Of a DNA stretch of 64,000 nt, positions 11,189-20,110 are shown piece after piece. The first letter of the stretch is position 1, and each line of letters opens with the position of its first letter. The stretch spans positions 1,644 to 65,643 of the forward strand of contig JBBEBC010000141.1 in the NCBI GenBank assembly GCA_040882555.1, read 5' to 3'. The notes below the pieces were generated by a model. The model was not told the DNA's origin, ran no database searches, and saw only the letters and a list, made by a program, of their open reading frames with translations. Position numbers and translations under genes: made by a program. This DNA is from Bacteroidia bacterium (GTDB lineage: Bacteria; Bacteroidota; Bacteroidia; M30B66).

Positions 11189-13627
11189 TTATTCGTTGGT
11201 TTCGTTAGTGTTTGATTCTTTTCTGATGGTAAGACTATCGAGATCGATATCTTCTTCTTCATCATAAACAGCAATAAGCGGTTCCTTATAGGATTTAATA
11301 GTAAAAGCTCTATCCATTGAAAGGAGAAGAGTAGGTAGCAGCAACAAATTGGTAAATAATCCTACGAAAATTGTCACCGAAATAAGGAATCCAAGGGCAA
11401 TGGTTCCTCCGAAAGAGGAGAAAAGGAAAATACTAAAGCCCAGCAACAGAATGATTGAAGTATAAATAATGCTAATACTCGTATCTCTCATGGAAGCAAT
11501 TACTGCTGGTTTAATTTGGTTGTTGTAAGTCTTTAAATCTAAGCCATACCTTGAAAAGTAGTGAATAGCAGAATCTACAGTGATTCCGTAGGCAATATTA
11601 AACACTAGAATAGTTGAGGATTTCAGTGAGATTCCATAAAAGCCCATTAAACCTGCAGTGAAAATCAAGGGAATTATGTTCGGAATAACAGAAACCAACA
11701 ACATTCTCATTGAATAGAACATGAAATACATGAGGCCTGAAATCAAGAAGATTGCAGCAATTAGACTCATCATTAAATTATCTACGAGATAATCTGTACC
11801 CTTGAGAAATACGAGCGAGGTGCCCGTCAGTTTCACCTCATACTTTTCAGGGTTAAAGATTGAATCAATCTTTGGTCTCACATCATCTCTAATTCTTTGC
11901 ATTTCGATGGTGCCGATATCGGCCATCTGAACGCTTATGCGGGTAAACTGCCTAGTGCTGTCGATGAAAGAACTGGTGCTGCTACCTTTAAGGTCCATGT
12001 TCTGCGCATAGGGCAAAAGAAAGGCAACTTCCTCATTTGTAGGCAATGAATAAAATGTAGAATCCCCGTTATAGAATCCTTGTTTAGCAAATTTTATAAC
12101 CTCTGCAATCGACAAGGCTTTCGAGAATTCAGGATATTTTCTGAGGACAGTTTGCAGTTCATCAATTCTTCGAAGAGTTGACAACTTCATCACTCCATTC
12201 TTCTTTTTGGTATCAATGGTGATTTCGAATGGCATCACCCCGTGGAAGTTGGTTTCGAAGAATTTTAAGTCAACAATAAGTTTATCAGTATCAGGAATAT
12301 CATCTGTGAAATTACCTGTGGTTTTTATCATTGTCATTCCCCAGATACTAAAGCCGGCAATGACAAATGTAGCTGCGTATATTGCTTTCCGGTGGTTAGA
12401 AACAAGCATGATAAGGAACTCAACAACTCGATCCATGTACTTATTATCGAGGTGTTTTACTTGTTTTGCCTTTGGCGATGGGATGTATGAATAAGCAATT
12501 GGTAAGATGGTAATACTAAGCAAGAAAACCTGCATCACGTTTATAGAAGAAAGGATTCCAAACTCCTTTAAAATATCACTTCTAACAAATGCAAATGTTA
12601 CGAAACCTAGTGCTGTATTGAAATTGGTAAGGAAGGTAGCGTTTCCGATTCTCTGAACAACACGGGCTATAGCTTTAATCTTATTACCGTGACCCCGATA
12701 TTCTCTGTGGAAATTATTGGTTAGAAAGATGCAATTGGGTATTCCAATAATGACAATCAGCGGAGGAATAAGTGCTGTTAAGATGGTGATTTGATAACCT
12801 AGCAGAACCATTGTTCCCATTACCCAAACAACACTTATGGCTACCACTAAAAGTGGGAAGATAATAGCTTTAAATGACCTAAAAAACAGTAGTAAAACGA
12901 GGGCCGTTATGGCTAAAGACATCCAGAGGAACATGCCAAGTTCACCTTTTAGCTTTTCTGCGTTAACGGTTCTAATGTAGGGCAGACCTGAGTAATGAAT
13001 GCTCACATTATGCTTAGCGGCAAACTTATCAGTGAATGAAACCAAGTGGTCTATCAGTTCCTTTCGACCTTTTCGGTCAATGCTTTTTTGATCCATGGTA
13101 ATAAGCATTACCGTGGCATATGCACCTGACTTAGTCTTTGTTATAAGAAGTTCGTCGTAGAATTTAAGAGAGAGTATTACATCCCTTAATGAATCCATTT
13201 CTGCCTGATTGGCAGGAAGTTTTTTCATTATCGGATTCACATTGAACTTCTGCAGTTCATCATTCCTTTCCAGATTATAAATTCCGGCTATAGAAAGAAC
13301 ATTTTTAACTTCAGGAATAACTTTGATAGAATCTGAAGCTAAGGCCCAGTCACTAAAAACGTCTTTTTCGAAAAGTTTATCTGATTCGATACCAATAACT
13401 AAAAGATTCCCATCCTCGCCAAAGAGGCGATTAAATTCAACATAGTTTTGATATTCGGGATCGTCTTCCGGAAGCAGTTGAGCCAGAGTATAAGTCATCT
13501 CTGCCTTGCTGCCAAAATACCCCATAATAACCGTTAAAACGCCAATAACAATAAGTATTGGCAACCTGTAACGTAAAATAATACGGGATAAATAAGCCCA
13601 CATGCTCTTCAAACAATTTAGCAACAA
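11189..13627 (-). CDS. MMPL/RND-superfamily transporter (12-TM, two large periplasmic loops)
   Basis: An 812-aa protein with two blocks of about 6 TM helices separated by soluble domains, the MMPL/HpnN-like architecture. It is the first gene of the minus-strand operon with rfbA, the epimerase and the polyprenyl synthase. Confidence 0.7.
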   Translation of the reverse strand: MLLNCLKSMWAYLSRIILRYRLPILIVIGVLTVIMGYFGSKAEMTYTLAQLLPEDDPEYQNYVEFNRLFGEDGNLLVIGIESDKLFEKDVFSDWALASDSIKVIPEVKNVLSIAGIYNLERNDELQKFNVNPIMKKLPANQAEMDSLRDVILSLKFYDELLITKTKSGAYATVMLITMDQKSIDRKGRKELIDHLVSFTDKFAAKHNVSIHYSGLPYIRTVNAEKLKGELGMFLWMSLAITALVLLLFFRSFKAIIFPLLVVAISVVWVMGTMVLLGYQITILTALIPPLIVIIGIPNCIFLTNNFHREYRGHGNKIKAIARVVQRIGNATFLTNFNTALGFVTFAFVRSDILKEFGILSSINVMQVFLLSITILPIAYSYIPSPKAKQVKHLDNKYMDRVVEFLIMLVSNHRKAIYAATFVIAGFSIWGMTMIKTTGNFTDDIPDTDKLIVDLKFFETNFHGVMPFEITIDTKKKNGVMKLSTLRRIDELQTVLRKYPEFSKALSIAEVIKFAKQGFYNGDSTFYSLPTNEEVAFLLPYAQNMDLKGSSTSSFIDSTRQFTRISVQMADIGTIEMQRIRDDVRPKIDSIFNPEKYEVKLTGTSLVFLKGTDYLVDNLMMSLIAAIFLISGLMYFMFYSMRMLLVSVIPNIIPLIFTAGLMGFYGISLKSSTILVFNIAYGITVDSAIHYFSRYGLDLKTYNNQIKPAVIASMRDTSISIIYTSIILLLGFSIFLFSSFGGTIALGFLISVTIFVGLFTNLLLLPTLLLSMDRAFTIKSYKEPLIAVYDEEEDIDLDSLTIRKESNTNETNE

Positions 13628-13739
13628 TTACATGAACTGCTAAGATGCACTTCTGTAAGTCGGCGAAGGTAGGAAAAAGAGGTGGAATCCGTTTGAAAAT
13701 GACTTCGGTATTTCATTCAATTCTCATCACGTTCAAGAC

Positions 13740-14192
13740 TTATTTTCTAGAAAATATAATGAAATCAGTAGCAAGCGGAGGATGTCCTGATTCTCTAGTG
13801 ATTCTGGCGACTTGTCCTCTATGATAAGAACCATGATTCACCATGTGGGTAATGAGCTCTGCAAGTGAATTTGAAAATTCTTCCCCAGCAAAGTTTGTAT
13901 ACTTGATAATCATGCCGTTAGGCTCATTTCGATGAATGAGACCTGACCAGAGTTGGTGAAGAGATTCATTGCATTTTACAAGGTTCTCTTTGTTTTCCTT
14001 TTTGAAGAGGTCTTTGGTAGAAGGTATTTCTTGAGCTCTGTTATACCAAACTTGCTTAGCGCCAAGGATGTGGCTCATTATTTCAAGAATGGAATCAGGG
14101 ATAGCTTGTTCGAAAGGTTGCAAAGCCTCAAAAACCCTATTGTTAGCCCAAAGGTCATATTGAAGAAGCGATTCGGCATAAGATGGACTCAT
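13740..14192 (-). CDS. DinB/YfiT-family protein (putative metal-dependent hydrolase)
   Basis: Contains DLWANNRVFEAL and HMVNHGSYHRGQ, the DinB_2-family His triad. Confidence 0.7.
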   Translation of the reverse strand: MSPSYAESLLQYDLWANNRVFEALQPFEQAIPDSILEIMSHILGAKQVWYNRAQEIPSTKDLFKKENKENLVKCNESLHQLWSGLIHRNEPNGMIIKYTNFAGEEFSNSLAELITHMVNHGSYHRGQVARITRESGHPPLATDFIIFSRK

Positions 14193-14227
14193 GCTGTAAA
14201 TTTAATATCCCCAATGTTAAGCCGAAA

Positions 14228-15793
14228 TTAAAGTTTTATCTCTTCGTCCTGATTATTGAGGAAGTGATATTCATTAATGTGATAGTTGAGGTTGGATCTA
14301 ACCTGTATCCATTTTTTGTACTTGAAATACCACTTCATTCTAATAGAAGGAAATCCCTTTTTAATGTAAGCATCAATGAATGGGTTCACCCAGAGGCTTA
14401 CTGATTTCTCATTTTGTTCTTTGAGAATATATCTTAAGGTATTCTCTATTTCATCAGTGATGAGAATAGAAGGCTGAATTTCACCAGTTCCATTACAAGT
14501 TGGGCACTTCTCGAGTGTTTCAATAACTAATTCTGGCCTAACTCTTTGACGAGTAATCTGGATTAAGCCAAATTTACTTGGAGGAAGTATGGTATGTTTA
14601 GCCCTATCCTGAGCCATACCTTCTTTCAGTTTATCGAAAAGAATTTTACGATTTCCAGCAGAATGCATATCGATAAAATCAATAACTATGATTCCACCCA
14701 TATCGCGTAACCTAAGTTGGCGTGCTATTTCACTTGCCGCCTCAAGATTGCAATCTAAAGCATTCGTTTCCTGGTCATTATCTGAACGTGAACGATGTCC
14801 TGAGTTTACATCAATCACGTGCATAGCTTCGGTATGCTGAACAATTAAGTAAGCCCCACTTTTCATGCTCACATTTTGACCGAACGCTGCTTTTATCTGG
14901 CGATCAATACCATAGGCCTCAAAGACATCCTCTTTCCCTTTGTGAAGCTTAACAATCTTTTCTTTGTCGGGAGCAATATGAGCGATGTAATTCTTTACCT
15001 CATTGTAAATGGTTTGATCATCAACAATAATACTGTTGAATGAATCATTCAAAATATCTCTTAGAAGAGCAGAAGTCCTCTTGATTTCACCAAGAACTTT
15101 CGTTTTGGGTTGAGCCTTTTGCAGGTTATTTACAAGAGTATCCCATCTTTCAACTAGTTCATTTAAATCCTGATCTAGCTCTGCAACTTTTTTATTAGCA
15201 GCTACTGTTCTTATAATAACACCGAAACCCTTCGGGCGGATGCTCATAATAAGGCGCTTAAGTCTATTTCTTTCTTCTGATTCTTTAATCTTTTGCGAGA
15301 TTGAAATCTTATCAGAGAAAGGAACAAGCACCAAATACCTTCCGGCTAAGGAAAGCTCAGAGCTAATTCGAGGACCTTTTGTTGAGATAGGTTCTTTTGC
15401 AATCTGGACAAGCATCGGCATGCTATTTTGCAGCACATCGATAATTTTTCCGTCTTTGCGGATATCATTATCCATGTTAAACTCAGCAAGTCGGGTGGCG
15501 GGTGCCTTTCCGGTGAGGCCGAGTTTCATATATTTAATGAGCGACTGAACCTGTGGCCCAAGATCTAGGTAATGAAGAAAGGCATCCTTTTCATAACCAA
15601 CATCTACAAATGCAGCGTTGAGTCCAGGCATAACTTTCTTCACGCGACCTAAATAGATATCTCCAACCGCAAAAGAGACATTACTTTTTTCACGGTTCAA
15701 CTCTATCAGTCGGCGATCCTCCAGCTGTGCAATGATAACATCGTTGCCAGAGGCATTGATGATTAGTTCTTTGTTCACGTATTTTATTTTCAT
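14228..15793 (-). CDS. rng: ribonuclease G/E family endoribonuclease
   Basis: An N-terminal S1 domain (GDIYLGRVKKVMPGLNAAFVDVG) and the RNase E/G catalytic core; 521 aa. Confidence 0.85.
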   Translation of the reverse strand: MKIKYVNKELIINASGNDVIIAQLEDRRLIELNREKSNVSFAVGDIYLGRVKKVMPGLNAAFVDVGYEKDAFLHYLDLGPQVQSLIKYMKLGLTGKAPATRLAEFNMDNDIRKDGKIIDVLQNSMPMLVQIAKEPISTKGPRISSELSLAGRYLVLVPFSDKISISQKIKESEERNRLKRLIMSIRPKGFGVIIRTVAANKKVAELDQDLNELVERWDTLVNNLQKAQPKTKVLGEIKRTSALLRDILNDSFNSIIVDDQTIYNEVKNYIAHIAPDKEKIVKLHKGKEDVFEAYGIDRQIKAAFGQNVSMKSGAYLIVQHTEAMHVIDVNSGHRSRSDNDQETNALDCNLEAASEIARQLRLRDMGGIIVIDFIDMHSAGNRKILFDKLKEGMAQDRAKHTILPPSKFGLIQITRQRVRPELVIETLEKCPTCNGTGEIQPSILITDEIENTLRYILKEQNEKSVSLWVNPFIDAYIKKGFPSIRMKWYFKYKKWIQVRSNLNYHINEYHFLNNQDEEIKL

Positions 15794-15933
15794 CCCACGC
15801 AGGGGTAAACGCCAAAAGGCACATCAAGGACATGCCCGGTGGGTTTTTCCCGCGAGAATAATGAAACGGAACGGTTGATAATCTGAATAATTGGAAAGTG
15901 TTTTCCCTAAAGCTTCAGACTATCTGCCGCAGC

Positions 15934-16023
15934 TTACTTCTTCTTGTGACGATTCTTACGCAGACGCTTCTTGCGCTTGTGCGTGGCCATTTTATGACGC
16001 TTTCTTTTCTTACCGCTTGGCAT
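15934..16023 (-). CDS. 29-aa highly basic protein, probable ribosomal protein bS22 (AURKAIP1/COX24-like)
   Basis: A reverse-strand ORF, ATG 16021-16023 to TAA 15934-15936, missing from the ORF track. Translation: MPSGKKRKRHKMATHKRKKRLRKNRHKKK. Its pattern resembles mycobacterial bS22 ([33 protein letters not shown]) and bS22 reported in Flavobacterium ribosomes. It lies between the TPR gene and rng on the same strand. Confidence 0.6.
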   Translation of the reverse strand: MPSGKKRKRHKMATHKRKKRLRKNRHKKK

Positions 16024-16035
16024 AATGAATAATTT

Positions 16036-16869
16036 TTAAAGTTTTGTATTAAGTTCAATTTGTCCGATTCTTCTTTCAGTTTCCTGAATTAACAAAGTAT
16101 CTGACGAAATATTTTTTATTTCTCTTAGTTCCTTTAGAGCCTCCTCGTTTTTCCCTTGAGCTTGCATGGCTTCAGCAAGATATAATCTCACTTCAGCTAA
16201 GTCAGGTTTCAAACCAATAACGGTTTTAAATCTTTCTTCTGCTTTATCATACTGCCCACTTTGCATAGAGAAAAACCCTAGATTAAGCTGAGCATCAACA
16301 TTTCCGGGTTCTGCTGCAACTACTTCTCTTAGCAGAAAAATACCTTTCATAGGTTCTTTTCCTCCTTCAACATAAGCAGCTCCAAGCATAGTTTTGGTTT
16401 CATTGTTTCCTGGCTTGAGTTCATTTGCTTTTTCAAGGCAAATACTTGCTCTATCATTTAAAGCAACTTTGTCTTCTCCCTGAAAAAACCTTGAAATACC
16501 AAGGTATCTCTTACCTGCAAGAAACCAGTCGTCTGCATTATTGGTTATCTCTGCTTTTCTGTAAACATATTCAGCAGCGATTCCCGGACGCATTTGACGA
16601 TCCCATGCCGAAGACAATGAATCTAACCAGGTCGATTTGGCTATGCCGGTTGCTTGTTCCAACCGGCTTTCAAAGAACTCAATGCCAGCAAGTGCTGGAG
16701 CATCCATTGATTTTTTAACCGACTCCAACTGCTCGTTAAATGCAGTTTGGTCCTCGGTAGCCGCAGTTACTGGTACATTCTTTTCAGACTTTCCTACCCT
16801 AGGGGCAAGAAAAATAGCCGTTCCAACAAGGACACAAGCTATAATGACCGACAGCTGACGGATATTCAT
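16036..16869 (-). CDS. tetratricopeptide-repeat protein with N-terminal signal/anchor
   Basis: A hydrophobic N-terminus and repeated A-x-x-Y/L...G..-x-A TPR-like helices (LAEAMQAQGKNEEALKEL...). Confidence 0.6.
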   Translation of the reverse strand: MNIRQLSVIIACVLVGTAIFLAPRVGKSEKNVPVTAATEDQTAFNEQLESVKKSMDAPALAGIEFFESRLEQATGIAKSTWLDSLSSAWDRQMRPGIAAEYVYRKAEITNNADDWFLAGKRYLGISRFFQGEDKVALNDRASICLEKANELKPGNNETKTMLGAAYVEGGKEPMKGIFLLREVVAAEPGNVDAQLNLGFFSMQSGQYDKAEERFKTVIGLKPDLAEVRLYLAEAMQAQGKNEEALKELREIKNISSDTLLIQETERRIGQIELNTKL

Positions 16870-16875
16870 TTTTTA

Positions 16876-17163
16876 TTAGGCCTTAACAGACTTTTTCACT
16901 TTATCGCTGAAAGTCTTAGCTGGCTTAAATGAAGGAATGAAGTGCTCAGGAATAACAATCGTAGTATTCTTAGAAATATTACGTCCTTTCTTAGTTGCAC
17001 GTTTCTTTACAATAAAGCTACCGAAACCACGGAGATAAACATTTTTTCCTGATGAAAGATTTGTCTTAACGCTTTTCATAAACGCTTCAACAGTTGCTTG
17101 TACAGTTACTTTTTCAATTCCTGTCTTTTCTGCGATTTCTGTAACAATTTCAGCTTTGGTCAT
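16876..17163 (-). CDS. HU family DNA-binding protein
   Basis: MTKAEIVTEIAEKTGIEKVTVQATVEAF...GFGSF, the HU/IHF fold signature; 95 aa. Confidence 0.85.
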   Translation of the reverse strand: MTKAEIVTEIAEKTGIEKVTVQATVEAFMKSVKTNLSSGKNVYLRGFGSFIVKKRATKKGRNISKNTTIVIPEHFIPSFKPAKTFSDKVKKSVKA

Positions 17164-17312
17164 TGCTGTTTGGATTTTAAAAGATTTATAAAGAGTATAG
17201 TTTTTTGTTAATGTGGCTGTTAGCGTCTTGAAAACGGGGGTGCAAAGATATTAGTTTTCTTTTCAAACGAAAATGTTTTTTACAATTCATTGAATCGCCT
17301 ATTATTGCTACA

Positions 17313-18371
17313 ATGGATTTGCCTTTTCATCCCTTCTCAGAAATTATTCTCCAATGGTATTCCCAAAACAAGCGCGTTTTGCCATGGAGAAATAATAAGA
17401 ATCCTTACTCGGTTTGGCTCTCAGAAATAATTCTTCAACAGACCCGCATTGAACAAGGATTGAGTTATTATTTGAAATTCCTTGAAGCATTTCCAAAGGT
17501 AGAAGATCTAGCGAACGCTGATGAAGATCTTGTTATGAGTCTTTGGCAAGGATTAGGATATTATTCAAGAGCTCGAAACTTGCATGCAGCTGCAAAAATG
17601 GTCGTGAATGACTTTAAAGGAAATTTTCCTGATTCGTATGATGATTTAAGAAAGTTGCCTGGCGTTGGACCGTATACTGCTTCTGCAATTGCTTCTATTT
17701 CATTTCAACTTCCTCATGCAGTGGTAGATGGCAATGTTTATAGGTTGCTTTCAAGATACTTCAATATTTCTACTCCTATTGATTCAGGAGCTGGTGTGAG
17801 GCAGTTTTTTGAATTGGCCAATGAATTAATTCCTCATTCTAAGCCTGGAGATTTTAATCAAGCCATGATGGATTTTGGCTCTTTGGTTTGTAAGCCAGCA
17901 AATCCTAAGTGTGTTAATTGTCCGCTAAACGCGGGATGTCTTGGCTTGAAGAGTAAGCAAGTAGATATGCTACCAATCAAAAGGGGAAAGACGAAAGTCT
18001 CTAAGCGATATTTCGTTTACTTAATTCTAAAAGATGATAATCTAAATACACTTGTTCGTAAAAGAGGTCCCAAAGATATTTGGGAAGGTTTATTTGAATT
18101 TCCTTTGATTGAATTGCAAACGGAAGAAGAGTTCAATCATTTTCAAGACTCTCTTGACTACCAAGAATTTATTAGTCATCAAAAGGCTGATTTATTGAAA
18201 ATTCACAAACCTGTTAAACATGTTTTAAGTCACAGGCACTTGTTTGTGGTATTTGCTGAATTAGCATGCAGAAAAGTAAAATCATTCAGCTCTTATGAGC
18301 CTAAGAAATATGAAAACTTAAGTAAAATTGGTATGCCTAGAGTAATTACTCGTTTTCTAGAAAACGAGTAA
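17313..18371 (+). CDS. mutY: A/G-specific adenine DNA glycosylase
   Basis: An HhH-GPD domain (LPGVGPYTASAI), a [4Fe-4S] loop CKPANPKCVNCPLNAGC, and a C-terminal NUDIX-like domain. Confidence 0.85.
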   Translation: MDLPFHPFSEIILQWYSQNKRVLPWRNNKNPYSVWLSEIILQQTRIEQGLSYYLKFLEAFPKVEDLANADEDLVMSLWQGLGYYSRARNLHAAAKMVVNDFKGNFPDSYDDLRKLPGVGPYTASAIASISFQLPHAVVDGNVYRLLSRYFNISTPIDSGAGVRQFFELANELIPHSKPGDFNQAMMDFGSLVCKPANPKCVNCPLNAGCLGLKSKQVDMLPIKRGKTKVSKRYFVYLILKDDNLNTLVRKRGPKDIWEGLFEFPLIELQTEEEFNHFQDSLDYQEFISHQKADLLKIHKPVKHVLSHRHLFVVFAELACRKVKSFSSYEPKKYENLSKIGMPRVITRFLENE

Positions 18372-18373
18372 AA

Positions 18374-20110
18374 TTATTGAACTAGAATCTTTTTTGAATA
18401 GCCTTTGTCAGATACTATTGTATAAACTCCCGAATCTTTTAGTTTTAACAATGAGTTGCTAGAAGCACCTGATAAAACACATTGTCCTACAGAGTTATAA
18501 ATATTAAATGATGCGTTTGGTGTATTGCTGCTAATGCTAAACTCACCGTTGCTTGGGTTAGGATTAACAGAAAATTCTTCTTTTGTAAGCTGCTCAATAA
18601 TACCTGCCGATGTTATTTCAATGCTTCCTATCGTGTTTTCACAGCCATGAATGTCAATTACCCTGACCGAATAAACTCCATTAGAAGTAAATGTAAAGCT
18701 TGAATCTACAGCACCGTTAATTTCAACGCCATTCATGTACCATTGATAAGATACGGCATTAGGCGCAAATGAAATAAAGGTATTTGCATCTTGAATTAAA
18801 AAAGAACTGGCTTGAGAGTCGAGAATAAACTTCACAGAGAATAGATATTCGTTAAAAGAACTTATCTCTTTTGCATGAACTATAGTTATAAACTCAGTTT
18901 CAGAAATAGGAATAATCGAGTTTAACCGTGATACATATCCAGGAATATTGATTTCAGCTTCACCATTTTCGCCAAAACTACTTACTATTTCACCATCAAC
19001 ACTGAAGAGTGTGACCTTTCCGTTCTCTTCAAAATCAAGGCTATTACTTATTAGAAAGAAAGTTTCATCAGTATGTGAATACAAATAGCTTGAATTTATT
19101 AATGAATATGGCAGGCCGATTAGGTTAACGACTCCATTATCACCAAATGTTGAATCTAATAAGCCTTCATAAGTAAGCTTTATTAAGCTCGAATTGTCCT
19201 CGGAATTAGAAATTAAAGATATAAAGCCATTGTTATATTGGAGAACAGATTTAGTTTGAGCAGATCTACTTAAATCTACTTGATGCAAAAATTGATTTTC
19301 AGAGTTAGAATTTGTTATTACATCTCCATTTGTATCAAGGTTCACAGCGAAATAGTAATTTAGTCCAGCGCTAGTGTCTCTGCAATAGCCTGTTAATATT
19401 GAACCTCCATCATCTAAACCCAATAAATAGTTGTTTTGTGGGTTTACAAGATAACCTTCTAAAACATCATCAATTGAAACATATCCATAAGACCCATAAG
19501 TAGAATCGATTAATCCATTAAGCGTATACCGAGCTATGAAGTTAGGGTGTTCTACTACCTCATATCCTGTAGCTAGAAAGGTATTACTTGAATTAGCGGA
19601 GCAAATACTAGTCATAGTGCCAAAAGAGGGAGTGTCGAAATTAGAATGAAAGTTCAACTCGAACTCCTCATCAAATTCACCATTGACCATTTCTTTTTTA
19701 ATGACTGGATTATAGAAATAAGGATCTAAATCGCTTGATTCATATCCGACATACATGTCCAAGTAATGATCAAGAAGCCCTCCATTGCTTGGTGAAGCTT
19801 GATTAATCAATACACTAGCGCTATCCAGACACTTAGCTGAGGTGTAGTATTGCATTTTTTGAATGGTGATAAAGTCAAGACTAAAGCCAGCCATCATTCC
19901 ATAATGTTTAATTTGAAGATCATTTAAACCCGTTGCTGGCTCTAAGTATGAATTGATTGCGCAGTTTCTAGCATTTGAACTTATCTGTACTATTCCATTA
20001 TTGCCCCATAAAGAGTCAATTACAAGACTTTGTCCAAAGAGGGTATTTGGTATTGTTAATAGGCAAATAAGTAAAATTCCAATACATGATTTAGTTAAGA
20101 TTCTCTTCAT
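18374..20110 (-). CDS. secreted protein with T9SS C-terminal sorting domain (function unknown)
   Basis: A signal peptide is followed by Ser/Asn/Gly-rich beta-rich repeats. The C-terminal ~80 aa (...FSVNPNPSNGEFSI...GVYTIVSDKGYSKKILVQ) resemble a T9SS CTD. Confidence 0.7.
   Translation of the reverse strand: MKRILTKSCIGILLICLLTIPNTLFGQSLVIDSLWGNNGIVQISSNARNCAINSYLEPATGLNDLQIKHYGMMAGFSLDFITIQKMQYYTSAKCLDSASVLINQASPSNGGLLDHYLDMYVGYESSDLDPYFYNPVIKKEMVNGEFDEEFELNFHSNFDTPSFGTMTSICSANSSNTFLATGYEVVEHPNFIARYTLNGLIDSTYGSYGYVSIDDVLEGYLVNPQNNYLLGLDDGGSILTGYCRDTSAGLNYYFAVNLDTNGDVITNSNSENQFLHQVDLSRSAQTKSVLQYNNGFISLISNSEDNSSLIKLTYEGLLDSTFGDNGVVNLIGLPYSLINSSYLYSHTDETFFLISNSLDFEENGKVTLFSVDGEIVSSFGENGEAEINIPGYVSRLNSIIPISETEFITIVHAKEISSFNEYLFSVKFILDSQASSFLIQDANTFISFAPNAVSYQWYMNGVEINGAVDSSFTFTSNGVYSVRVIDIHGCENTIGSIEITSAGIIEQLTKEEFSVNPNPSNGEFSISSNTPNASFNIYNSVGQCVLSGASSNSLLKLKDSGVYTIVSDKGYSKKILVQ

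Follow-up and report, generated by a model that had tools for sequence, protein, structure and literature searches.

An open reading frame of 29 codons on the minus strand, situated between a gene for a TPR-repeat protein and the rng gene, almost certainly encodes ribosomal protein bS22 of the Bacteroidota/spirochaete type and, judging by sequence comparison, is the orthologue of Flavobacterium johnsoniae Fjoh_1533. Ribosomal protein bS22 is already known biology, and the locus represents an ordinary ribosomal protein gene in its usual place. The genes of the region, numbered from the first letter of the window (the whole analysed stretch of DNA, 64,000 nucleotides), are the following:

15934..16023, minus strand, bS22 coding sequence (29 codons plus TAA stop), assigned from the ORF, its translation and its identity to bS22 chains
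16036..16869, minus strand, gene of a TPR-repeat protein (Pfam TPR_19, E = 3e-17), with the stop codon 12 nt before the bS22 ATG
16876..17163, minus strand, gene of an HU-type DNA-binding protein (Pfam Bac_DNA_binding, E = 6.5e-27)
17313..18371, plus strand, MutY-like glycosylase gene, divergent, beyond HU
14228..15793, minus strand, rng/rne-type ribonuclease gene of the RNase E/G family (Pfam RNase_E_G, E = 2.9e-98), 140 nt downstream of bS22
13740-14192, minus strand, gene of a DinB-family protein, after rng
11189-13627, minus strand, gene of an MMPL/RND-type membrane protein, after rng

The ORF begins with ATG, ends with TAA and is translated as MPSGKKRKRHKMATHKRKKRLRKNRHKKK. The 29 aa sequence comprises 11 K, 6 R and 3 H and has zero acidic residues (17 K+R, 59%, with no D or E). 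It contains the core MP.GKKRK..K..THKRKK....NRHKK of a class of stand-alone, extremely basic proteins of approximately 28–33 codons, and the defining motif occurs once in the window compared with zero expected occurrences. The plus strand of 15934..16023 reads as an unrelated, stop-free, leucine-rich string. The first-pass annotation had given this interval and this peptide correctly but had left the strand unstated, and the frame is now placed on the minus strand; its description of the neighbours as a TPR gene and rng on the same strand was also accurate, all three genes being on the minus strand.

The identity of the peptide was assessed by comparison with solved ribosomes. A phmmer search of the window peptide against all PDB chains (E ≤ 10) matched exactly three distinct sequences, all of which are bS22:

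9i5v_10 (also 9i5x), P. gingivalis 70S ribosome, 27/29 identical, E = 1.6e-10
7jil_5, F. johnsoniae 70S ribosome, Fjoh_1533, 26/29 identical, E = 5.5e-10
8fmw_V, B. burgdorferi, 20/28 identical, E = 1e-5

Entries 9I5V and 9I5X were confirmed to be P. gingivalis 70S ribosomes. The bS22 reading put forward at first pass is borne out by this near-identity to chains that were modelled into the cryo-EM density of three ribosomes where bS22 sits. The P. gingivalis protein (GenBank AAQ66340.1, deposited as "AURKAIP1/COX24 domain-containing protein") aligns with the window peptide over the full length and without gaps, and differs from it by S3N, R22K and one extra C-terminal Lys. The F. johnsoniae protein (7JIL chain 5) differs by M12V, L21A, K23A and one extra Lys. 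The B. burgdorferi protein (bb0822; 8FMW chain V) shares the THKRKK...NRHKK core, but its gene has a GUG start and lacks the HU and rng neighbours (locus L062).

Since basic peptides align well by composition alone, the window peptide was shuffled 20,000 times with its composition preserved, and the shuffled and real sequences were compared by pairwise BLOSUM62 scores. The real score lay far above those of the shuffled peptides for both F. johnsoniae (z = 15.8) and Borrelia (z = 11.5), and none of the shuffles reached it. A profile built from 53 distinct relatives and searched against PDB (E ≤ 10) returned the same three chains with E-values from 1.8e-15 to 1.5e-12 and nothing else. The alignment of these 53 sequences has 17 invariant columns, all of which are present in the window peptide.

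As a side observation, at least one PDB entry gives the F. johnsoniae bS22 sequence (u123360; 7jil_5 and also 9oz9, 9ozn, 9ozz, 9p0e) the molecule name "50S ribosomal protein L38". Since bL38 is a different protein (Fjoh_4981, DUF4295) (PMC7797042), the name seems to have been entered by mistake on deposition.

Related loci were collected in two ways. Species-representative genomes were scanned with a degenerate DNA pattern for THKRKK-x4-NRHKK that had been verified on the window, and at least 120 loci were found. Among the matches listed, 119/120 lie in an ORF of 28–31 codons with the start MP[SCN]GKKRK. The remaining listed locus (L101) showed no match to the pattern when its 8-kb block was scanned again, and its match may span the edge of the block. 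Every class of Bacteroidota is represented among the listed loci, Ignavibacteria and Rhodothermales too; the others come from spirochaetes (Borreliella and others), Marinimicrobia, WOR-3 and a MAG of the PVC group. In addition, an independent set of 80 metagenome loci was picked only by homology to the Rng protein of the window (60–88% identity).

Comparison of the gene neighbourhoods showed that the HU-(TPR)-bS22-rng arrangement of the window is the position typical of the phylum. An Rng homologue is located immediately downstream on the same strand in 93/105 listed genome loci with at least 700 nt of downstream sequence, the median bS22-rng spacer of the listed genome loci being 128 nt, and in the metagenome set the bS22 ORF stands just 5' of rng in 71/72 loci with enough upstream DNA. 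These two counts bear out the conserved synteny upstream of rng that the first-pass annotation had singled out for checking. The 12/105 listed loci without rng belong to Ignavibacteria, Rhodothermales, spirochaetes, WOR-3, the PVC MAG and a few unclassified MAGs. As for the upstream side, an HU gene is found within 1.5 kb on the same strand in 83/91 listed genome loci; a gene-sized HU-bS22 gap (more than 300 nt) is present in 41 of these 83, and tblastn with the TPR protein of the window gives matches in this gap in many listed loci. The MutY gene is usually divergent beyond HU in the listed genome loci.

According to these data, the order MutY (divergent) / HU - (TPR) - bS22 - RNase E/G is kept across Bacteroidia, Flavobacteriia, Cytophagia, Sphingobacteriia and Chitinophagia and is lost in Ignavibacteria, Rhodothermales and spirochaetes. 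The Flavobacterium loci (L016, L109) have the same HU-bS22-rng order as the window; in Flavobacteriia, the TPR gene between HU and bS22 is absent, and HU ends approximately 300 nt upstream. A search of the available paper library found no article naming bS22 together with RNase G. The conserved HU-(TPR)-bS22-rng order and the structured spacer described below are the only points of the analysis that are new, and only mildly so.

Several individual loci deserve mention. In the closest genome locus among the matches listed (L021, a Bacteroidia MAG with Rng 78% identical to that of the window), a homologue of the MMPL gene follows rng directly, without the DinB gene. Bacteroidota-type bS22-Rng loci were also detected in a contig of a "Lachnospiraceae bacterium" (L058, with HU upstream) and in a contig of a "Streptomyces griseus" MAG (L079, with a TPR match); the Rng proteins of both are 52–56% identical to that of the window, and both contigs are probably mis-binned or mislabelled. 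In a contig of an "Alphaproteobacteria" MAG (L066), the bS22 peptide is located at the edge of its block.

The sequence context of the ORF contains two features that may be related to its expression:

16024..16053, minus strand, bS22 translation-initiation region, A-rich, with no Shine-Dalgarno sequence, overlapping the last codons and the stop of the TPR gene
17243..17250, minus strand, candidate promoter of the HU-TPR-bS22 unit, upstream of HU, with the Bacteroidetes-type -7 motif TAtcTTTG, a consensus match only, for which a promoter function is proposed

The 30 nt upstream of the bS22 ATG are CTTAATACAAAACTTTAAAAATTATTCATT, with A at -3 and AAAA at -14..-11. In the alignment of the 119 listed loci, the fraction of A is 0.64–0.80 at -14..-11 and 0.52 at -3. 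Initiation without Shine-Dalgarno sequences and with upstream adenines has been described for Bacteroidia (PMC13000457), and the initiation region of bS22 fits this type, so that the protein would be translated from an A-rich leader lacking a Shine-Dalgarno sequence. Likewise, the F. johnsoniae bS22 gene is devoid of a Shine-Dalgarno sequence, in a phylum that does without it. As for transcription, from 15700 to 17400 the minus strand has no TAnnTTTG other than TAtcTTTG, and a TTTG is situated 13 nt further upstream of it (17243-17267). Since the TPR stop is only 12 nt from the bS22 ATG and the only -7 motif lies ahead of HU, with no promoter motif between the genes, HU, TPR and bS22 probably form one transcript, and bS22 would be co-transcribed with the two genes upstream of it.

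The region between bS22 and rng has an unusual structure:

15794..15933, minus strand, folded spacer from the bS22 stop to the rng start, 140 nt, MFE -56.2 kcal/mol, with a putative regulatory role
15814..15837, minus strand, hairpin resembling a terminator, GGGCAUGUCCUUGAUGUGCC with UUUU behind it, within the second domain of the spacer and 24 nt upstream of the rng ATG

The predicted fold of the spacer is markedly more stable than that of dinucleotide shuffles (z = -5.0) and consists of two hairpin domains, the second of which covers the rng ATG. The equivalent spacers of 84 listed genome loci have a median z of -3.8 compared with mononucleotide shuffles, and 71/84 are below -2. The 40-nt stretch upstream of the T-run, which includes the terminator-like hairpin and a smaller stem, has a folding energy of -12.2 kcal/mol. 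A hairpin followed by a T-run is present in 27/71 metagenome spacers, where shuffles give an expectation of 3.5. An analogous element, GGGC...GCCC+T6, occurs in the closest metagenome relatives (L122, L123), and the spacer of L121 contains a similar-looking sequence that falls short of the hairpin and T-run criterion. A simple terminator scan did not report the hairpin at 15814..15837, because it is followed by only four T. The Rfam search of positions 13000-19000 (E ≤ 1) gave no match, and the DNA alignment, in which the L031 row comes from the wrong strand and is disregarded, revealed no conservation of the primary sequence of the spacer among related loci.

The spacer would be a structured and partly terminator-like element dividing bS22 from rng. 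It may act as a terminator or attenuator that keeps the expression of a plentiful ribosomal protein apart from that of a scarce nuclease, or as a leader of rng. A stronger proposal is that the HU-(TPR)-bS22-[structured spacer]-rng arrangement, nearly universal in Bacteroidia, is functional as a whole and more than a historical relic, and that the spacer is a cis-regulatory RNA of a kind not described before, acting as an attenuator or as an autoregulatory 5' leader of RNase E/G by analogy with the rne leader of E. coli. We consider this proposal unlikely. If true, the spacer would set the ratio of bS22 to a low-abundance rRNA-processing nuclease, possibly coupling the supply of bS22 to 16S rRNA maturation.

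The same observations could be read in another way, namely, that the ORF is a regulatory uORF or leader peptide for rng, whose translation controls the folding of the spacer and hence rng expression, with the peptide itself being secondary. Consistent with this are the position of the ORF immediately upstream of rng in most listed genome loci and nearly all metagenome loci (the counts given above), the sequestration of the rng start codon in a spacer that folds far better than shuffles, here and across the related spacers, and the enrichment of the hairpin with a T-run. However, conservation of every residue throughout a phylum is not usual for leader peptides, and the same peptide is a stoichiometric component of solved ribosomes (PMC7797042). 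Moreover, Borreliella, other spirochaetes, Ignavibacteria and Rhodothermales possess the bS22 gene with no rng downstream, and the sequence of the spacer itself varies. A leader-peptide role in place of the ribosomal one is therefore very improbable; a regulatory coupling in addition to the ribosomal role of bS22 is possible.

The bare existence of a 29-codon ORF means little, since 103 ORFs of at least 20 aa overlap positions 12000-20000 of the window; it is the sequence that goes beyond chance. The reading of the frame as an accident of an A/G-rich stretch has in its favour the abundance of such short frames, the other ORFs overlapping the site on both strands (15891..16025, plus; 15898..16032, plus; 15915..16058, minus) and the lack of Pfam and NCBIfam matches to the peptide. 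Against it, in addition to the near-identity of the peptide to structure-verified ribosomal proteins, stands the pattern of variation among the related loci. The start and the stop are conserved in the 119 listed loci from several phyla, the ORF starting 12 codons 5' of the pattern and stopping 0–3 codons 3' of it; the start codon is ATG in 115/119 of these listed ORFs. In the 13 N-terminal codons, which are free of the pattern, the summed entropy over the 119 listed loci amounts to 4.98, 1.55 and 15.31 bits at codon positions 1, 2 and 3, respectively, and such third-position-dominated variation is the signature of a translated frame. As derived from the coordinates, in both antisense ORFs the variable sites occupy the first or second codon position, and these ORFs are therefore not the conserved frame.

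The metagenome set gave a similar result. The 71 metagenome ORFs differ from the window ORF at a median of 20/87 nucleotides, and 1359 of the nucleotide differences are in synonymous codons compared with 29 in non-synonymous ones. The bS22 gene is real, and strong purifying selection acts on the protein that it encodes. A chance ORF is refuted by the near-identity to PDB chains, the third-position variation and the synonymous excess, and its probability is negligible.

A different small basic ribosomal protein (for example bTHX, bL36, bL34 or an eL41-like protein) would also be short, K/R-rich and helical, and composition alone scores high in such comparisons (shuffle mean of approximately 40–45 BLOSUM62 units), but this assignment can be practically dismissed, as the search of PDB at E ≤ 10 gave only the three bS22 entries and zero other ribosomal chains, and zero families matched the peptide at E ≤ 10 in NCBIfam, which is expected to hold equivalog models for the standard bacterial ribosomal proteins.

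The relation of bS22 of this type to the AURKAIP1/COX24 family and to actinobacterial bS22 was considered separately. The first-pass label was "bS22 (AURKAIP1/COX24-like)"; the bS22 part of it stands, and the resemblance to AURKAIP1/COX24 and to the Mycobacterium protein was not recovered by the sequence comparisons made here. Scans of the window peptide against Pfam and NCBIfam gave no match at E ≤ 10, and the Pfam AURKAIP1/COX24 (bS22) family, which the annotation had named as a means of checking, fails to recover the peptide even at this threshold. The model PF08213 (COX24_C) gives weak matches to 12/53 relatives, the best with E = 0.044, and HMMER composition filters may be behind the missing match of the window peptide. 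According to hhalign, the family alignment shows similarity to M. smegmatis bS22 with a probability of 6.6% (E = 0.0055 over 15 columns). Pairwise comparison of the window peptide with M. smegmatis bS22 gave z = 1.4, with 9.6% of the shuffles scoring as good; the best ungapped alignment of the two contains 10 identities (M1, S3, K6, R9, M12, K16, K19, L21, R22 and R25). A phmmer search of PDB (E ≤ 10) with M. smegmatis bS22 finds mS38 weakly and does not find the Bacteroidota chains, and the Bacteroidota-type profile at the same threshold finds neither M. smegmatis bS22 nor mS38. The names given by NCBI to the relatives vary, some being "AURKAIP1/COX24 domain-containing protein" and others "hypothetical protein".

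Actinobacterial bS22 (M. smegmatis, 5O5J/5O61), mS38 (AURKAIP1/Cox24, PF08213) and eL41 are similar to the window peptide in length and charge. Published superpositions show each of them as a single helix in the same h44/h45 pocket (PMC7797042, PMC10618245, PMC12123416). The relation of Bacteroidota bS22 to these proteins can accordingly be described from the published structures as "same pocket, same shape". Common descent with them is plausible; convergence has even been suggested for these proteins (PMC12123416).

The role of the protein can be judged from the literature on its near-identical counterparts. The F. johnsoniae protein was built de novo into unassigned density of the 30S subunit and was identified as Fjoh_1533, until then a hypothetical protein in the annotation. 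It is situated between h44 and h45 of 16S rRNA and touches H70 of 23S rRNA, at the site that bS22 occupies in M. smegmatis (PMC7797042). P. gingivalis bS22 was likewise placed between h44 and h45, where it contacts H70, and the authors propose that it stabilises h44, adds an intersubunit bridge and influences the aminoglycoside pocket (PMC12123416). In Borrelia, the gene was unannotated, starts with GUG and was free of transposon insertions; h2, h27, h44 and h45 make up the pocket, and there is a contact to H68 (PMC10618245). Of the ribosomal proteins in that study, Borrelia bS22 alone escaped identification by mass spectrometry (PMC10618245). With its 59% K+R, the window peptide would be cut by trypsin into very short pieces. 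In a 2026 study, isolated F. johnsoniae 30S subunits lacked bS22, but every 70S initiation complex contained it; the authors speculated on a hand-over involving IF3 and the 50S subunit, and further studies of bS22 were called for (PMC13000457).

By analogy with the F. johnsoniae, P. gingivalis and Borrelia proteins, the window peptide would be present between h44 and h45. It is expected to form a single, slightly bent alpha-helix, which would insert into this 16S pocket where the two subunits meet, near the decoding centre, with the C-terminal lysines probably reaching 23S rRNA (H70 in F. johnsoniae and P. gingivalis, H68 in Borrelia). Given this placement and the 23S contact, bS22 would fill the pocket, neutralise the rRNA and add a contact between the subunits, and it would presumably be bound in the 70S ribosome and lost from isolated 30S subunits.

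The finding leaves the current understanding unchanged. Published work links bS22 to aminoglycoside susceptibility in mycobacteria. The protein adjoins the aminoglycoside site on h44, and with this link it is therefore relevant to ribosome-targeting drugs.

The practical value of the result is a correction of the annotation. The gene of a universal Bacteroidota ribosomal protein measures 90 nt here, at or below the length limits of gene callers; in many records bS22 is absent or "hypothetical", and naming it completes the ribosomal protein set of the genome. An exact look-up of the 29-aa peptide in a collection of 15 billion proteins did not find it, and the F. johnsoniae and P. gingivalis bS22 sequences were also not found in this collection. 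This absence and the unannotated Borrelia gene (PMC10618245) agree with the earlier remark that genes of this kind are often missed by gene callers. At the DNA level, the identical peptide is encoded by at least 64 loci, that is, at least 10 genome loci and 54 metagenome loci.
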